Shown: piece after piece, positions 16,330 through 49,830 of the stretch
How the letters are laid out: the number at the start of each line of letters is the position of its first letter
Position numbering within the stretch: position 1 is the stretch's first letter
Origin: Candidatus Campbellbacteria bacterium
GTDB lineage: Bacteria > Patescibacteriota > Minisyncoccia > Phycocordibacterales > EsbW-18
Assembly: GCA_045863475.1 (NCBI GenBank)
Contig: BTUR01000004.1
Location: 2,628 to 66,627, forward strand
Reading direction: 5' to 3'
Length of the DNA: 64,000 nt
Position numbers and translations under genes: made by a program
The notes under the pieces: model-generated
What the model was told of the DNA's origin: nothing
The model's input: the letters and a program-made list of their open reading frames with translations, nothing else
Databases searched by the model: none

Positions 16330-19300
16330 ATGAAAACAAACTTCGCACACATGCTTTCAACGACAACCGCAAAGGCGCTCTCCATCGGCGTAACGCTTTT
16401 TATCGTTACACTGTCGGTGGTTGCACCTCAGACGATTGCATCGCTTGATGCACAAATCGCAGCTGACACGGACAGTGAAAAGTCCGAGAAGGCGGAGCCC
16501 CAGGAACAGGAACCTCAGGAGCAGGAGCCCACAACGACGGGAGGCGGTTCTTCAACGAAGCCGAACCCGAAAGACGAAAGTCCGGAGGTGTCGTGTGAGA
16601 CACCGACGACTGAGGAAGGATTCCGCGCCATCCGCGACAACATGGGTCGCTGGGATTGGGACCTTGAGAACGGCAGCGTGACAATCCGCAACAACGACGA
16701 GAACTGCTCATGGCCCGTTGGTTTGAAATCATTCAAAATCTACAGTGAACAGAATCCGCAAAACGGCCAAACTCGTTTCGACGAGGATTGGGCGACGCTT
16801 GCTCCCGGTGAGACACGTACGTTTCAGGTAGATGTTCCGTCATGCCGCTACCAGCTCGACGCGCTCATTTTCCCGGCGATGCCGTACACGTCTGCAAAAC
16901 TCATTCGCGGTGAAATTAATTTTGATCTCCCGGTATGTGAGCGTCAGCTGGAGCCCCCGGCGTGTCCGTTTACACCCGAAGATGGCACTGTTGTCGTTTT
17001 CTCTCAGGACAGCGGCACCTACCTCGCATCCACTCCCGCATCGCGTCACTCTATCGGTCCGATGCATGTAACGCTTCCTCCCGGCACGTACACCGTCAAG
17101 ACGTTTTCATGGGACGGCTATGTCGGCCGCGAAAACGTGATGCAGATCCACGAGCAGTGGAACGTCATGCTCCGCGACGGCGCGGGTACAACGACAGGAC
17201 TTGCCGGTCCGACGACCGATCTCGCGGATCAAGTTCGCCAGACATCTCGTATTGATACATTCATCAACGCATTCACGGCGACCGCGACGACAACGCGCAT
17301 TTTCGCGCTGCACGCATTCCCGAACGACACCTCAAGCGCAAACAGCGTCGTACCTGTCTGTGCGGCTTTCAAGCGCACAGCACTGCCGCCCGCTGATCCT
17401 GCAACGCTTACGGTTATAAAGACCGTTATCAACGACGACGGTGGCACGCGACAAGTATCAGACTTTAATCTCTACGTTGGCACACAGAATGTAACGAGTG
17501 GTGCTACAAACGAATTTGCTCCCGGCACGTACACCGTTCGCGAAGACAATCTTCCGGGTTACACAGCATCAAATTGGATGGGGGATTGTTCTGCAACGGG
17601 ACAGGTAACGCTCGCGGCTGGACAGCACAAAATCTGCCGCATCACCAACAACGACAACCCGCCCGTTCCTGCAACCATTACGCTCATCAAGACCGTTCTC
17701 AACGACGATGGTGGTACGGCAGAAGTTTCTGACTTCAATCTCTACATCGGCAACAATGCGGTGCAGAGTGGTGTTCCGATGCAAATCGGCCCCGGCACAT
17801 ACACTGCACGTGAAGACCAGCTCCCTGGCTACACGGCATCAGATTGGATGGGGGACTGTTCGGCAAACGGTTCAGTAACGGTTGCAGCCGGAGAGCACAA
17901 GATTTGCCGCATCACCAACAATGATATTCCGACTGAGCCGCAGCACGCGACACTCACCGTTATCAAGACTGTTCTCAACGATGACGGTGGTACGGCAGAA
18001 GTTTCTGATTTTAATCTGTACGTCGGCACGATGCAGGTTACTTCCGGTGCCACGAACGCGTTTAACCCGGGTACGTATACCGTTCGCGAAGACCAGCTTC
18101 CCGGCTACACGGCGTCAGACTGGATGGGCGACTGTTCAGCTGACGGAGAAGTGACGCTTGTTCTCGGAGAACACAAGATTTGTCGCATCACCAACAATGA
18201 CAATCCGTTTAACCCGGATGACGCAACACTCACGGTCATCAAGACCGTTATCAATGACGACGGTGGCACGGCGCAGGTGGAGGATTTTCACCTCTACGTC
18301 GACGAACTTCAGGTTATAAGCGGTGAAGAAAACCGTTTCGCTCCCGGTACCTATACTGTGCACGAAGCGAACCTCCCGGGGTACGTCGCATCCGCTTGGA
18401 TGGGTGACTGTTCGGCAGACGGACAAGTTACGCTTGCATCAGGACAAAATAAAATCTGCCGCATCACCAACAACGACACACCCATCACTAACGGTGAGAC
18501 AACGATTACGCTTATTAAGACGGTCATCAACGACGATGGCGGCACTGCACAGGTATCTGACTTCAATCTCTACGTCGGGAACACGCAGGTGACGAGCGGT
18601 AACGCACTGTCAGTTACACCTGGCACGTACGCGGTTCGCGAGGATAACCTTTCAGGCTACACCGCATCAGGTTGGACGGGCGACTGTTCATCTGACGGTT
18701 CGGTAACACTTGCATCAGGCGATCACAAAATCTGCCGCATCACCAACAACGACAACGCCGGTGGAGGCGGAGGCGGTGGCGGAGGCGGTGGTGGCGGCGG
18801 TAGCCGACGCCCGCGCGTGACACTCTTCTCCAACCCGGAGATCTTGGGTGCATCCATCTCGCTCTCTCAAGTTCCGTACACCGGTCTTGGCACGAGCATC
18901 CTGCAGATTATCCTCTTCCTTATCGGTCTCGTTGCAATCGCAGGCGGGGTTACCTACATGCTCCTTCGCCGCCGATTCCCGGCAGCGGGAATTGAAATCC
19001 CGATGGAGCACGCGCCGATTCTTAAAGCACAAACACACACAACACCGGCACCGCGTGTTGCATACGACGACCTTGACGTTGCCGTTGCAGACGAAGGACA
19101 AGACGAGCTTGCGGTGTACGGTGAATATGAACACGCATTTGTTGTGGAAGAGACTCCTCGAACATCTATGCAGGTTCCGACGAATCTCCCGGTTGCGCCG
19201 GTAGCGGTTGCCAGTGTGGTACGTCAGTCGCCGGCAGCTCGCATGGTGCAAGAACACCGTGAAGAGAAACGACAGGTAGCGGTATCACTTGGTAAACTCC

Positions 19301-19890
19301 AGAATGCGGCACGCGCATCACAGTCCATTATTTCAGAAGACGGTCTGAAGCTTGTCATTGCATCTGCTGAAGGCAACGAACAGAAAGCGCTTGAACGCCT
19401 CACGGCAGTTATTGAAGTGGCCAAGACGCGCTACCCGCGCGAAGACGGCTGGCTCGTGCTTGATGCAACACGCATCCGCGAATCACTCTTTATCTCGATT
19501 CTCTCAACAGTCCCGCTTTTCATTGAATGGATTGTTCGTGGAGAAGACCGCAACATCTTCAGCTTCCTGCGCATGCTTAAGTCACAGAACCAGCCGGTTG
19601 CAGACTTCATCCGTAAGGTCGTTGCAGAGCTCGACAATGCGCACCGCGCACGCCTCGAAGGGGCAAGCGACGTGACCGTTGACCCGCATGTTGCCGAGGT
19701 AACGTACCATCTCTCAAATCGTGATTTGGAGATGATCGTCTCGGAGCTGCTCTCAGGTGTTGACGAACGATATGACTCCGCCTTTACGTCCGTTCGCCTC
19801 GCTTTGGTTCGCGTGCTCGATATCGTCAAAGCAAACCACATGACGCGTATTGGGGGCACCTACGCCTTCCAGGAGGGCTCGGAGGCCTAA
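16330..19890 (+). CDS. large cell-surface protein (1186 aa): signal peptide, five tandem roughly 93-aa prealbumin/Cna-B-like repeats, a Gly14 linker, a sorting-signal-like segment (VPYTG, TM, RRRF), then a roughly 320-aa C-terminal domain
   Basis: N-terminal hydrophobic signal. Repeats 'TLTVIKTV(I/L)NDDGGTAxVSDFNLYVG...PGTYTVREDxLPGYTASxWMGDCSxDGxVTLxxGxHKICRITNND' occur five times. GGGGGGGGGGGGGG. Then SLSQVPYTGLGTSILQIILFLIGLVAIAGGVTYMLLRRRF. Adjacent to the sortase gene. Confidence 0.75.
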   Translation: MKTNFAHMLSTTTAKALSIGVTLFIVTLSVVAPQTIASLDAQIAADTDSEKSEKAEPQEQEPQEQEPTTTGGGSSTKPNPKDESPEVSCETPTTEEGFRAIRDNMGRWDWDLENGSVTIRNNDENCSWPVGLKSFKIYSEQNPQNGQTRFDEDWATLAPGETRTFQVDVPSCRYQLDALIFPAMPYTSAKLIRGEINFDLPVCERQLEPPACPFTPEDGTVVVFSQDSGTYLASTPASRHSIGPMHVTLPPGTYTVKTFSWDGYVGRENVMQIHEQWNVMLRDGAGTTTGLAGPTTDLADQVRQTSRIDTFINAFTATATTTRIFALHAFPNDTSSANSVVPVCAAFKRTALPPADPATLTVIKTVINDDGGTRQVSDFNLYVGTQNVTSGATNEFAPGTYTVREDNLPGYTASNWMGDCSATGQVTLAAGQHKICRITNNDNPPVPATITLIKTVLNDDGGTAEVSDFNLYIGNNAVQSGVPMQIGPGTYTAREDQLPGYTASDWMGDCSANGSVTVAAGEHKICRITNNDIPTEPQHATLTVIKTVLNDDGGTAEVSDFNLYVGTMQVTSGATNAFNPGTYTVREDQLPGYTASDWMGDCSADGEVTLVLGEHKICRITNNDNPFNPDDATLTVIKTVINDDGGTAQVEDFHLYVDELQVISGEENRFAPGTYTVHEANLPGYVASAWMGDCSADGQVTLASGQNKICRITNNDTPITNGETTITLIKTVINDDGGTAQVSDFNLYVGNTQVTSGNALSVTPGTYAVREDNLSGYTASGWTGDCSSDGSVTLASGDHKICRITNNDNAGGGGGGGGGGGGGGSRRPRVTLFSNPEILGASISLSQVPYTGLGTSILQIILFLIGLVAIAGGVTYMLLRRRFPAAGIEIPMEHAPILKAQTHTTPAPRVAYDDLDVAVADEGQDELAVYGEYEHAFVVEETPRTSMQVPTNLPVAPVAVASVVRQSPAARMVQEHREEKRQVAVSLGKLQNAARASQSIISEDGLKLVIASAEGNEQKALERLTAVIEVAKTRYPREDGWLVLDATRIRESLFISILSTVPLFIEWIVRGEDRNIFSFLRMLKSQNQPVADFIRKVVAELDNAHRARLEGASDVTVDPHVAEVTYHLSNRDLEMIVSELLSGVDERYDSAFTSVRLALVRVLDIVKANHMTRIGGTYAFQEGSEA
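17390..18790 (+). repeat. Five tandem roughly 280-bp coding repeats (the prealbumin-like repeats of the surface protein)
   Basis: Repeats are evident in both protein and nucleotide sequence (recurring acgcttacggt.ataaagaccgtt.tcaacgacgatggtgg..). Confidence 0.7.
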
Positions 19891-21498: not shown

Positions 21499-21621
21499 GC
21501 ATAAGCGCCTACTCCATCCGAATCTTCAATTTTTTCCGAGAGTTCACAAAACTTTTCTGCAACTCTTGACTCGCCATTGTCTTGTTGTAGTGTGTTAGTG
21601 GACTGGAAAAAGGAGGTAGGT

Positions 21622-22056
21622 ATGAACGACACAATTTCAAGACAGTTTGTGGCTGTGAGAGCCGTCCTTGTTCACGACGGCAAGCTTCTTTTGATTCGAG
21701 AATCTGCAAGGTATGAAGGAGGAACCAACACGGGAAAGTACGATTTCCCGGGAGGTAAGGTTAAGGTCGGGGAATCTTTCACCGATGCTATTCAACGGGA
21801 ATCAGAAGAAGAGATCGGTGTACGTGTCGAAATTGGCCAACCTTTCTATGTTGGTGAGTGGCGGCCGACTATCCGTGGAGAACAGGTTCAAATTGTCGGA
21901 ATCTTTTTCCTGTGTAAGCCCGCTTCCCTTGACGTAAAACTGGGCGCTGATCACGACGAACATGTCTGGGTCACTGTGTCCGAAGCTAAAAGGATGCCCC
22001 TTATCAAAGAGACGGGTGAGGCAATTGATTCACTTTTGCGGCAAAAACTACTGTAG
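21622..22056 (+). CDS. NUDIX hydrolase
   Basis: Nudix box GGKVKVGESFTDAIQRESEEEIGV. AGGAGGT RBS 8 nt upstream of the ATG at 21622. Confidence 0.8.
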   Translation: MNDTISRQFVAVRAVLVHDGKLLLIRESARYEGGTNTGKYDFPGGKVKVGESFTDAIQRESEEEIGVRVEIGQPFYVGEWRPTIRGEQVQIVGIFFLCKPASLDVKLGADHDEHVWVTVSEAKRMPLIKETGEAIDSLLRQKLL

Positions 22057-22079
22057 GGATACAGTAGTTTTTACTTTTT

Positions 22080-22650
22080 ACGTAAAAAATTACAAAGGAA
22101 AGGGGCGCCGACTCGCTTGGAGTAACGGCGCCCGGGTGGGTTACCCGAAGGTCCCGTGGTTAATCGTCGCAGGGGGCAATATGCCTGGTTTCGCGCAGAG
22201 CGCTCAAATCGCAGGGACACTGGCCGCTCGACGAAACCTCCGTACCGAGGGATAGAGCCCGACCGATCTATAGACCGATCTCTGGGTGCTACTTGGTGCA
22301 TCGCTGTTTGTGGGCGGGGGGTAGTGGAAGTTACCCTCGCGCCGTCTTTTCTCTGCCCCGTAGGGCGGGTTACCGAGTACCGCTTCTCGTGCAGACTCTC
22401 ATCTGCAGCGATTCCCTCCAAGGGTCCGGTTTCTCGGTGCGGGAGATGGCATCTCCCACTCTTCTTTTCTCTCTTCCTTCTGTCGTGGGGGTTGGCTGCC
22501 ACGCTTTTTAGGGCGGGGGCCGTGCGAGCATAGCGCTCCTCCGTGGGGATACGAAGATGGGGAGTAGAAGAACAGCGACAAAGAACAATCCCCTGAGAAA
22601 CCCCGTTTTTCAACGGCGTTTTGCAGGTGCTGACGATACTACTCTCCGTT
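22080..22650. ncRNA. GC-rich, roughly 570-nt non-coding region with extensive hairpin potential; probable structured RNA of unassigned class; strand undetermined
   Basis: Both strands are tiled by overlapping Arg/Pro/Gly-rich junk ORFs. GC content is clearly higher than in flanking genes. Hairpins include gggcgccg...cggcgccc. No T-arm (GGTTCGA.TCC) is present, so it is neither tRNA-like nor tmRNA. RNase P RNA is already located elsewhere in the window. Confidence 0.35.
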
Positions 22651-22712
22651 CAAAATACTGTCAAGCATTGTGTGGTGGTATACTGGGTACATACCAATAA
22701 CCTTAATTTCGT

Positions 22713-23645
22713 ATGGAAACTCAACTTGAGAAACCGAAGATGACGCCGAAGGACTTCTTTTTGTACCTCGGCGTTGCTGTGTCGCTCTATGCGTCGGCAG
22801 GTGCACTGCTTGCACTTTTGTTCAGCATCATAAATATTGCACTTCCTGACCCGCTCAATCCGTACTATGCCGCGACATGGGCAAGCAGCGGTATGCGCTT
22901 TGCCATTTCAACACTGCTCGTCGCGTTTCCGGTCTATCTCGCCATCTCATGGCTCATCCGGAAAGATATTGCGGGTAACGTTGCGAAGTACCAACTTTCC
23001 GTGCGTAAGTGGTTCATTTACTTCACGCTCTTTATCGCCGGTGCGGCTATCGCAGGAGACCTCATCGCGTTGGTAAACACGTACCTAAACGGTGAAATTT
23101 CCGCACGCTTCATCTGGAAGATGTTTGCAGTGTTTGGTGTTGCGGGTGTTATCTTTGCCTACTATTTCTACGACATTAAACGTGCGGCAGCGGGAAACAC
23201 GAAGACAAATACAACACTCATTATTGTTGCCGCGGCAGGTGTGCTGGCTGCCGTTATCGCAGGGTTCTCAGTTGCCGGTTCGCCAGGGGAGATTCGCGAA
23301 TTGCGCTTTGATGAGCTGCGCATTGCCGACCTCCAGAGCATTCAGTGGCAGGTAACTGAGTACTATCAGCGTCATAAAACCCTCCCCGCAGATCTCGGCG
23401 CACTCCAAGACGACATCTCAGGCTACCGAGCACCGGTTGATCCTAAAACGGGTGAGGCGTACGAATACGCAGTGAAGAGTCAGCAGACACTGACGTTTGA
23501 GTTGTGCGCGACGTTTGGTGCATCCACCATCGATGCGACGAGCTCATACGCGGAACCGTCAGGAGAGACGTTCCGACACGAAGCCGGTCGCGTGTGCTTT
23601 ACGCGGACCATTGACCCCCTGGCGTATCCGATTCTGAAGCAGTAG
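22713..23645 (+). CDS. membrane protein (N-terminal multi-TM domain, C-terminal soluble domain)
   Basis: Five to six predicted TM helices, then a hydrophilic C-terminal domain. No catalytic motif. Confidence 0.55.
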   Translation: METQLEKPKMTPKDFFLYLGVAVSLYASAGALLALLFSIINIALPDPLNPYYAATWASSGMRFAISTLLVAFPVYLAISWLIRKDIAGNVAKYQLSVRKWFIYFTLFIAGAAIAGDLIALVNTYLNGEISARFIWKMFAVFGVAGVIFAYYFYDIKRAAAGNTKTNTTLIIVAAAGVLAAVIAGFSVAGSPGEIRELRFDELRIADLQSIQWQVTEYYQRHKTLPADLGALQDDISGYRAPVDPKTGEAYEYAVKSQQTLTFELCATFGASTIDATSSYAEPSGETFRHEAGRVCFTRTIDPLAYPILKQ

Positions 23646-23725
23646 CAGAGTATGCGCCGCCCCGTCCTCAAAAAGAGGGCGGGGCGGTTTTCGTATCTGT
23701 GCCGTGTGGTGTAGTATGTCCTCAC

Positions 23726-49390: not shown

Positions 49391-49392
49391 GA

Positions 49393-49830
49393 TGTCGCTT
49401 GTACTGGTAAGCCGAATTCTGTATCCCGCCCTCTATGCTCCCTGAATAACGTTTTTAGTTACTCCGAAAGCTTAGAGGGCGGGACGACGATTATTTCTCT
49501 TGCCCGTACGTTACCGTACGGATCTTTGCGGCACTCCGCACTTCCAAAAGAAAGCGCGGCACGGCCTTGCATGTAGGTAAGGATTTTGCCGTTTCACCCC
49601 TCGACTTCGCTCGGGGCAAGCCCCAAACTATTTCGAAGGTTATCCCGTTACCGGGACCCGAAGTTCTTTCGAACTGCGGCGTCACTGCTCGCACCTCTGC
49701 CGGAGCTCTCTGTGAAGAGAGCTCGGCGGTGGGCGTTACCCACTACCGTCCTCCTGTTTTGCAACAGGACATGTTCGGACTTTCCTCACTCTGTGAAAGA
49801 TCACAGGCGCAATCGCCTTATACAAGCGGT
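49393..49830 (-). ncRNA. rnpB: RNase P RNA (bacterial type-A-like)
   Basis: Minus-sense contains the P4 5' strand GAGGAAAGUCCGAACA, GGUAACGCCCACC, GGUGAAACGGCAAAAUCCUUACC and the 3' P4 strand ACAGAAUUCGGCUUACC. P1 pairs gcttgta (49822-49828) with tacaagc (49396-49402). The ORF track reports only spurious ORFs here. Confidence 0.8.

Follow-up and report, generated by a model that had tools for sequence, protein, structure and literature searches.

The genomes of Patescibacteria (or Candidate Phyla Radiation, CPR) span roughly 0.6-1 Mb, with little DNA to spare and few regulators that can be recognised, and to our knowledge almost nothing is known of their non-coding RNAs. What occupies a 656-nucleotide (nt) gap, without a conserved long open reading frame (ORF), in such a genome? 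The gap in question lies at positions 22057-22712 of a 64,000-nt stretch of contig BTUR01000004.1 from a Candidatus Campbellbacteria bacterium (this whole stretch being referred to here as the window), between the stop codon of a NUDIX gene (22056) and the ATG of a gene for a DUF5671 membrane protein (22713). The gene order is ychF, NUDIX, gap, DUF5671 and the leucyl-tRNA synthetase (LeuRS) gene leuS, with all four genes on the plus strand, and the identities of NUDIX, DUF5671 and YchF were confirmed with Pfam. A preliminary description, made from the sequence, had proposed a structured RNA of ~570 nt at 22080-22650 and had not determined its strand; the gap was correctly placed, its true span being slightly wider, and the guanine-plus-cytosine (GC) content stands above that of the flanking genes as described (0.575-0.62 across 22100-22599 vs 0.43-0.50 in the adjacent 200-nt windows). 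The analysis reported here makes it very probable that the gap holds a real structured RNA gene on the minus strand, i.e. opposite to both flanking genes. The fuller statement, that this structured RNA gene also engages ribosomes by the mechanism set out below, is advanced tentatively and as somewhat doubtful.

Strand, limits and fold of the RNA gene

The only strong promoter in a consensus scan lies on the minus strand (TTGACA-N17-TAGTAT, 22664..22636, 10/12 matches), with its -35 hexamer TTGACA at 22659..22664 and its -10 hexamer TAGTAT at 22636..22641; the putative RNA start, ACCUG, begins eight bases downstream of the latter, at 22628. At the opposite end of the gap a minus-strand stem-loop at 22103..22133, in which GGGCGCCG (22103-22110) forms an 8-bp stem with CGGCGCCC (22126-22133), is followed by the U tract UUUCCUUUG at 22101..22093. 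Since the U tract is found only on the minus side of this hairpin, its plus-strand flank being GGGUGGG, it is read as a minus-strand intrinsic terminator, which the terminator scan missed solely for its 15-nt loop. It corresponds to the ggggcgccg hairpin of the preliminary description, which is present with a stem of 8 rather than 9 bp, and with the role of a terminator rather than of a functional core. From the positions of promoter and terminator we infer a minus-strand transcript of ~536 nt (22093..22628) with a 5' end of ACCU... and a 3' end in the U tract. A bidirectional terminator of the NUDIX gene with a 13-bp stem (22043..22072), lying outside the RNA, is a possible backstop for it.

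Relatives' loci, given L numbers below, were fetched via the DUF5671 protein from species-representative genomes, metagenomes of the Joint Genome Institute (JGI) and a large assembly index. The same promoter-RNA-terminator layout is present at the ychF/DUF5671 junction in every relative whose DUF5671 is at least ~62% identical, where the ychF stop comes first, then a GC-rich hairpin serving as terminator, a stretch of 170-560 nt in which nothing is called, the minus-strand promoter (TTGAC(A/T)-N16-18-TAnnnT) and the DUF5671 promoter, and in all retrieved close relatives the RNA gene is back-to-back (divergent) with the DUF5671 gene. No gene is called in the gap in the source annotations of these loci. 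Searches with nhmmer match the RNA at the syntenic site in L161, L164, L162, L169, L170 and L003 (E=1e-23 to 1e-138), so that related CPR genomes do have homologues at this locus, and separate two sequence types between which no similarity was detectable by nhmmer. Type A, that of the window, also comprises L161, L164, L162/L163, L003, L169/L170, the first unit of L172 and L179, together with a short form of ~170 nt in L174-L177 that retains the 3' domain only; type B comprises L002, L171, L173 and L178, and its layout recurs, with weak or no sequence match, in the second unit of L172 and in a 175-nt form in L001. Homologues measure 398-559 nt and the shortened forms 170-400 nt. Both types share a 5' ACCU hairpin, a GUUCUU element, at least one strong Shine-Dalgarno (SD) core, a tiny ORF and a terminator.

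The transcription signals are retained throughout this set. A perfect TTGACA stands at the equivalent -35 site in all type A/B homologues (TTGACT in the short form of L174-L177); most type A genes have the -10 region GTAGTAT unchanged, with TAATAT in L179 and TATACT or TATAAT in type B genes. An equivalent GC-rich hairpin with a U-rich tract ends most of the homologous units; in the type A unit of L172, which is followed by a type B unit, the hairpin is succeeded by a tract that is not rich in U. The two units of L172 lie in tandem on the minus strand (L172:1520-2400), A and then B; both have a TTGACA promoter and a terminator to themselves, and the type B copy carries an extended SD, GAGAAAGGAGGU, followed by AUG-GAG-UAA. 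With promoters intact in the relatives and terminators ending most units, the suggestion that the region is a degenerate element gains no support.

In more distant Patescibacteria (DUF5671 identity of at most 50%) the upstream gaps are mostly below 150 nt and hold no such unit. Type A and B nhmmer profiles found no further members among 179 loci, nor did a covariance model of the Pa-Pb-Pc module described below in 27 sources; judged by these searches, the RNA gene is restricted to one Candidatus Campbellbacteria clade. Within the window, a search for a repeat or a template of a diversity-generating retroelement returned nhmmer matches only to the RNA region itself, and a mobile-element origin was rejected on the lack of similarity to phage and plasmid collections.

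The conserved feature is in large part the fold. RNAalifold, applied to type A alignments of 6-8 distinct sequences, yields a consensus that is a chain of local hairpins. In the middle domain 91.1% of cells form standard pairs, vs 25-58% when the partners are slid by 1-3 columns, and the helices covary, with 17 cells changed on both sides vs 4.5 +/- 1.8 in shuffles (17 being reached in 0/500 shuffles); from 6-8 type A sequences, such covariation is supporting evidence that falls below R-scape-grade proof. The type B consensus, from four sequences only, is a consistent multi-hairpin structure with 11 pairs showing compensatory change. A plus-strand RNA or untranslated region (UTR) was rejected on the polarity of promoter and terminator, on the folding z-scores (-3.44 for the minus strand vs -2.06 for the plus strand) and on G.U pairs. 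The middle-domain pairs also favour the minus strand, at 91.1% of cells vs 86.0% when read as plus-strand RNA, a modest preference, and a biased one in view of the way in which the structure had been obtained.

Read from its 5' end, the predicted fold opens with hairpin P1 (CCUGCAAAAC...GUUUCUCAGG, 22592..22627, minus strand, as are all elements that follow), which would sequester the 5' end and has a comparable predicted counterpart, ACCU...AGG(G/U), in type B. It is followed by a GUUCUUU element resembling an anti-SD (22577..22586), predicted to pair with the first SD of the RNA (SD1), and by an invariant helix GGCCNCC/GGCAGCC (22494..22521), which remains a prediction because its pairs never vary. 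Hairpin Pa (GGGAG...AUCUC, 22443..22457) has changes on both sides in 3/5 pairs. Helix Pb (ACCGAG/CUCGGU, 22372..22438; 92.7% of cells paired, mostly invariant) closes a junction that holds the second SD (SD2) and hairpin Pc (22385..22411), in which four pairs are compensatory on both sides (GC/AU/UA/UG, CG/AU, AU/CG/GC and GC/AU). Hairpin Pe (GCGCGAGGG...CCCGCCC, 22312..22342) lies inside a hypervariable patch. Finally, the direct repeat gaccgatct noted in the preliminary description is present (22261-22269 and 22273-22281) and takes on a structural meaning on the minus strand, where it forms an 8-bp hairpin, Ha (GAUCGGUC-UAUA-GAUCGGUC, 22262..22280), with two G.U pairs that become A.C mismatches if read on the plus strand. 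Ha shows changes on both sides; relatives carry at this position a hairpin of differing sequence, e.g. CCGAUCC-UCC-GGAUCGG, and it is kept in the short forms L174 and L179.

Could the gap instead hold a long protein gene, or the remains of one? The three longest candidates (180 residues on the minus strand; 125 and 97 residues on the plus strand) have no Pfam match, and the longest ORF of type A shifts frame and strand from genome to genome. Between pairs of type A sequences only 1-6 of the 6-17 indels per pair are multiples of 3, and substitutions are spread flat over the three codon phases (e.g. 64/67/67 for the window vs L164). On these observations a protein-coding gene or pseudogene was rejected, and no frameshift-tolerant protein signal was seen, the indel lengths and the lack of codon periodicity pointing the same way. 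The initial statement that no credible protein is encoded is correct for the long ORFs, and needs qualification for two conserved SD-preceded mini-ORFs, to which we return.

Known RNA families likewise fail to account for the region. A cmscan search with 4227 Rfam 15 families gave no credible match in the gap region at E<=10 and none in nine homologous loci at E<=1, and the RNA gene belongs to no Rfam 15 family. ARAGORN finds 10 tRNAs in the window, all outside the region, and no transfer-messenger RNA (tmRNA); together with the Rfam result in the region (E<=10) this agrees with the earlier failure to match tRNA-like RNAs and tmRNA by eye, as the Rfam result alone does for signal recognition particle (SRP) RNA. 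6S RNA is excluded both by Rfam and by form, the minimum-free-energy and consensus folds being a ~536-nt chain of hairpins without pairing of the 5' and 3' ends vs a ~180-nt rod. RNase P RNA (bacterial class A) does reside elsewhere, as had been stated, at 49392-49828 on the minus strand (83.3 bits, E=1e-23 over the full model), with no RNase P match in the gap; its score lies below the Rfam gathering score of 100, so that a scan at the default gathering threshold misses it. The large RNAs OLE, GOLLD, ROOL, HEARO and raiA, all families contained in Rfam, gave no credible covariance-model match in the region or the nine loci. Group I and group II introns and small ribozymes are also without an Rfam match, and the flanking genes are intact; the idea of a ribozyme or intron remnant, for which neither the region nor the homologous loci gave an Rfam match, gains no support.

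Antisense regulation of the DUF5671 mRNA was considered and rejected, the 9-nt complement in question occurring only in the window and L161. It consists of the 3' arm of P1 (22594-22602), which is perfectly complementary to 22727-22735 in DUF5671 codons 5-8, and probably reflects chance. In the literature searched on CPR non-coding RNAs, SD-decoy RNAs and CsrA in CPR we found no description of this RNA.

Promoter, terminator, conservation and covariation, with no conserved long ORF, are all as expected of a non-coding RNA gene in general, and a lineage-specific large structured RNA, one of the possibilities first raised, is what the syntenic homologues in CPR relatives, the covarying helices and the absence of a protein signal support. 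Retained across a whole clade and equipped with a consensus promoter, an RNA gene of 0.5 kb is probably abundant and important to the cell.

Shine-Dalgarno cores, mini-ORFs and engagement of the ribosome

If no long protein is made from this RNA, is it nevertheless seen by ribosomes? GGAGG/AGGAG cores number 61 on the sense strand of 14 RNAs, where shuffles lead one to expect ~16 and the antisense strand has 11, an enrichment of ~4-fold when all 14 RNAs are counted, with 2-7 full SD cores per RNA. GGA by itself is not enriched (15 RNAs have 123, vs 118.6 expected), and a CsrB-like sponge of the Csr/Rsm kind was rejected on this count. The predicted accessibility of the SD cores, 0.38 vs 0.16-0.25 for other G-rich 5-mers, is about twofold higher; SD1 is predicted to be usually masked, with SD2 and the third core, SD3, more open. 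The same type of SD is used by local genes, e.g. AAAGGAGGU before NUDIX. The DUF5671 ATG (22713) has no recognisable SD upstream (..CCTTAATTTCGTATG) and NUDIX has AAAGGAGGT; the strongest SDs of the neighbourhood are therefore those of the NUDIX leader and those inside the non-coding RNA.

A scan for SDs followed by start codons, with ORFs mapped onto a six-sequence type A alignment, gave exactly two ORFs that keep their start and stop columns in 6/6 sequences, both on the RNA strand and both with GGAGG at normal spacing; on the antisense strand of this alignment no ORF has conserved start and stop columns. The first, mini-ORF1 (AUG CUC GCA CGG CCC CCG CCC UAA, MLARPPP*, 22508..22531), follows SD1 (GGAGGAG, 22536..22542; kept as (A)AAGGAGG in type A), and its 7-codon peptides are MLARPPP*, MHARPPP* or MHIRPPP* (pattern M-x-x-R-P-P-P-stop), with codons varying between CGG and AGG for Arg, CCC and CCG for Pro, GCA and GCC for Ala, and UAA and UAG. 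Of the XPPP contexts measured in E. coli, R-P-P-P gives the strongest stall, which elongation factor P (EF-P) relieves (PMC4176338). The second, mini-ORF2 (MRVCTRSGTR*, 22370..22402), follows SD2 (GGAGGG, 22414..22419; conserved in 7/7 sequences of alignment A6) and starts at the tip of hairpin Pc with AUG (GUG in L169); its 10 codons have the pattern M-x-(I/V)-x-(A/T)-R-(S/N)-G-T-R-stop, with CGA, AGA or CGU for Arg, GGU or GGC for Gly, and UAA or UAG as stop. In L179 helix Pb is lost, yet the frame of mini-ORF2 is kept, with UAG one codon earlier. By a hand count, 7/9 substitutions in the conserved 3' parts of the mini-ORFs are synonymous or stop-preserving, which, given shared ancestry and recombination, is no more than suggestive. 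SD3 (GGAGG within ACGGAGGU, 22237..22241) has no conserved start codon after it. Type B has a conserved mini-ORF of its own, an SD followed by GUG and 3-5 codons (MRDRK*, MRDR*, MATR* or MRD*); in L001 and the second unit of L172 the SD precedes AUG-N-stop. In types A and B independently, RNAalifold predicts that GUUCUU pairs with the SD of a mini-ORF, that of the GUG mini-ORF in type B.

On these grounds we tentatively propose that the RNA engages the translation machinery rather than encoding a protein. 30S subunits or ribosomes would bind it when its SDs are exposed, access to SD1 being gated by the upstream GUUCUU(U) element. On translating mini-ORF1 with a pause at PPP-stop, a ribosome would open the GGCCNCC/GGCAGCC helix (22521-22494), in which the Arg-Pro-Pro codons partly lie, and this melting may alter how the downstream domains fold and/or how long they last, so that the level or conformation of the RNA would report translation status or capacity. 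A still more specific version must be called unlikely, namely that the RNA represents a new stand-alone, translation-gated class in CPR, in which ribosomes load on masked SDs and stall at R-P-P-P-stop, making it a trans-acting sensor of EF-P, prolyl-tRNA or translation capacity that sits in, and diversifies with, the strain-variable DUF5671 locus.

Several observations weigh against ribosome engagement. The GUUCUU:SD helix is unproven because only one-sided or wobble changes are seen in it; mini-ORF1 is absent from the type A unit of L172, from L179 and from the short forms, and the type B peptides (MRDRK, MRDR, MATR, MRD) are short and variable. Mini-ORF2 lies largely within helices Pb and Pc, its AUG being made up of a closing A-U pair, which is conserved, and a G of the loop, and a predicted helix takes in the Pro codons of mini-ORF1; constraint at the level of the RNA could therefore explain the conservation of the mini-ORFs. 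With 6-8 distinct type A sequences from a recombinant locus, the substitution statistics are weakened. Lastly, no gene follows the RNA on the same strand, the next genes, NUDIX and ychF, being on the opposite strand, so that the classical logic of a leader peptide is left without a visible output.

The main rival explanation, which we hold to be possible and rather less probable, is that the RNA is a protein-binding scaffold or mimic in which the SD-like strands are structural, e.g. as an internal mimic of an SD:anti-SD duplex to which a ribosomal or other RNA-binding protein would bind, and the mini-ORFs are never translated. In its favour, the helices covary, mini-ORF1 is dispensable in several homologues and types A and B each give a predicted GUUCUU:AAGGAG pairing of their own, and there is a reported precedent in OLE RNA, which likewise adjoins a membrane-protein gene and whose P6 holds an anti-SD:SD (ASD:SD) mimic bound by bS21 (PMC12054373). 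GUUCUU is, however, a weak anti-SD mimic (with G.U pairs, and not CCUCC), and CCUCC/CUCCU partners are not enriched in the RNAs (11 vs ~16 expected), so that most SD cores lack a Watson-Crick partner. A scaffold would also leave the conservation of start and stop codons, with its synonymous-type changes, unexplained, and no partner protein is identifiable in the locus, where the small ORFs neighbouring the RNA are membrane or acidic proteins.

Much less probable is the absence of any RNA function, the gap being a decayed gene, a spacer or a cis unit (divergent promoter, insulator or terminator) between ychF and DUF5671. The sequence does change rapidly, with ~60% identity at the RNA locus between genomes with 74% amino-acid identity in DUF5671, there is gain and loss of modules, and the locus is recombinogenic; against this, perfect -35 hexamers in the type A/B homologues, good -10 hexamers and terminators are retained, compensatory changes preserve the hairpins, and no residual protein similarity is found. 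An idle spacer of 0.5 kb would be unlikely to persist in a streamlined genome, and distant Patescibacteria mostly have gaps of <150 nt at this junction.

Less likely again is that the RNA is a small polycistronic mRNA with the 7- and 10-residue peptides as its functional products. SD, start and stop are conserved, and the C-terminal RPPP and R(S/N)GTR are kept through synonymous changes, as such a reading would have it, but the peptides cover 57 of ~536 nt, the remainder being conserved and structured, and the ORFs are missing in the type A unit of L172 and in L174 and unrelated in type B. We know, moreover, of little precedent for cytoplasmic peptides of 7-10 residues without a processing or export context.

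The least likely explanation, a divergent member of a known family (6S, SRP, tmRNA, OLE-like or intron) or a plus-strand UTR of NUDIX or DUF5671, can appeal to the frequent divergence of CPR RNAs, exemplified by the RNase P RNA of the window with its score below the gathering threshold, and is countered by the lack of any family at E<=10 in the region and at E<=1 in the nine loci whereas that divergent RNase P reaches E=1e-23, by the ARAGORN result for tmRNA, by a fold that is no 6S-like rod, by the NUDIX gene having a terminator of its own and being absent from relatives that keep the RNA, and by a -10 element of DUF5671 itself (GGTATACT) ~25 nt upstream of its ATG, so that the DUF5671 5' UTR is short.

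Were ribosome gating via the mini-ORFs correct, this would be an undescribed regulatory design, a leader-peptide sensor detached from any downstream gene. The RNA would add a family to Rfam even without an assigned function, and the gene is a concrete target for metatranscriptomics and in-vitro translation.

A mosaic locus and its surroundings

How can an RNA so variable in sequence share long identical tracts between genomes? Comparisons were made over window positions 22250-23700, L161, and L003:4330-5950 vs L162. Between L003 and L162 identity is 97-100% in ychF and leuS but only 49-79% in DUF5671 and in the RNA's 5' and middle part, apart from an almost identical island in the shared promoter region. 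The window and L161 differ by ~15% in leuS and share a 95-100% identical tract from 22433 to ~23230, which takes in the 5' domain of the RNA together with DUF5671's N-terminal half; the middle patch of the RNA (hairpins Pd and Pe) is 64-74% identical between them and the C-terminal half of DUF5671 64-82%. By sequence comparison, the stretch that runs from the RNA through DUF5671 is a mosaic produced by recombination. The 5' domain itself shows no substitution in ~178 nt between the window and L161; as the identical tract runs on into DUF5671, marking it as a recent recombination tract, 'ultra-conservation' of this domain was withdrawn as evidence of selection. The most variable parts of the locus are the C-terminal half of DUF5671, which looks pilin-like by eye, and the RNA hairpins Pd and Pe.

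Metagenome contigs tend to break at or inside the RNA gene: L165-L168 end ~85 nt upstream of DUF5671, and ends of L161 and L170 also fall here. Strain-level heterogeneity, or the mosaic, probably explains these breaks, and the ychF-DUF5671 junction may be flagged as a hotspot of recombination, variable between strains, at which metagenome assemblies break. An assembly artefact was recognised in L003:4457-4556, where a 100-N gap is flanked by a duplicated 55-nt overlap; the artefact was collapsed.

Relative to the relatives, the NUDIX gene and its terminator (window 21577-22072) form an insertion between ychF and the RNA unit, the ychF stop directly abutting the RNA terminator in relatives that lack it; for L172 and L173 the product of the LeuRS gene is instead reported to contain a NUDIX domain. 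Further upstream, on the plus strand, an ORF of 1186 residues (window 16330-19890) contains approximately six tandem repeats of ~90 residues (TVIKTVxNDDGGTxxVSDFNLYVG...GDCS...KICRITNND), a run of ~14 glycines and a C-terminal transmembrane segment, and is probably a large surface protein.

Comparison with known systems

To which known system does this RNA come closest? In STAB-SD elements of Bacillus mRNA 5' UTRs a strong, non-productive SD can bind 30S subunits and protect the transcript from 5'-to-3' decay. The present RNA resembles them in having strong GAAAGGAGG-like SDs that would not be used for productive translation; here, however, the SDs are spread along a non-coding transcript, the 5' end of which is already protected by a hairpin.

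CsrB and RsmY/Z share with it a strong promoter and a terminator of their own, a very variable length, the occurrence of paralogous types that are sometimes in tandem, and repeated purine-rich SD-like motifs. CsrB has roughly 20 GGA sites, whereas GGA is not enriched in the present RNAs, which have only 2-7 full SD cores each.

The dual-function small RNAs SgrS/SgrT, RNAIII/hld and SR1/SR1P combine a structured RNA with a small ORF, as is predicted here. The ORFs of the present RNA are, at 7 and 10 codons, far shorter, and no base-pairing target was found for it, its complementarity to the DUF5671 mRNA not being conserved.

The OLE RNA and its ribonucleoprotein (RNP) in Bacillota offer the likeness of a ~540-600-nt structured non-coding RNA beside a membrane-protein gene, with an intramolecular SD:anti-SD-like duplex, binding by bS21 being reported for that of OLE (PMC12054373). 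In contrast to OLE, the RNA has no Rfam OLE match and belongs to another phylum, its neighbour gene is divergent and not co-transcribed, its anti-SD-like strand is GUUCUU and not CCUCCU, and it is modular and far less conserved.

Ribosome-arrest leader peptides (ErmCL, TnaC, SecM and EF-P-dependent polyproline stalls) share the short ORF with a strong SD, the embedding of SD and start codon in alternative helices, predicted in the present case, and a stall-prone motif, since the C-terminal R-P-P-P-stop matches the strongest E. coli XPPP stall context (PMC4176338). This combination of a short SD-preceded ORF and such a motif (AUG...RPPP-stop) is found in 6/6 core type A sequences. Unlike those leaders, the RNA has no regulated gene downstream on the same strand, its transcript ending at its own terminator, and the mini-ORF lies inside a stand-alone transcript of ~536 nt. 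Whilst it thus lacks the downstream gene that defines the class, the RNA would, by analogy, work most like a ribosome-arrest leader unit.

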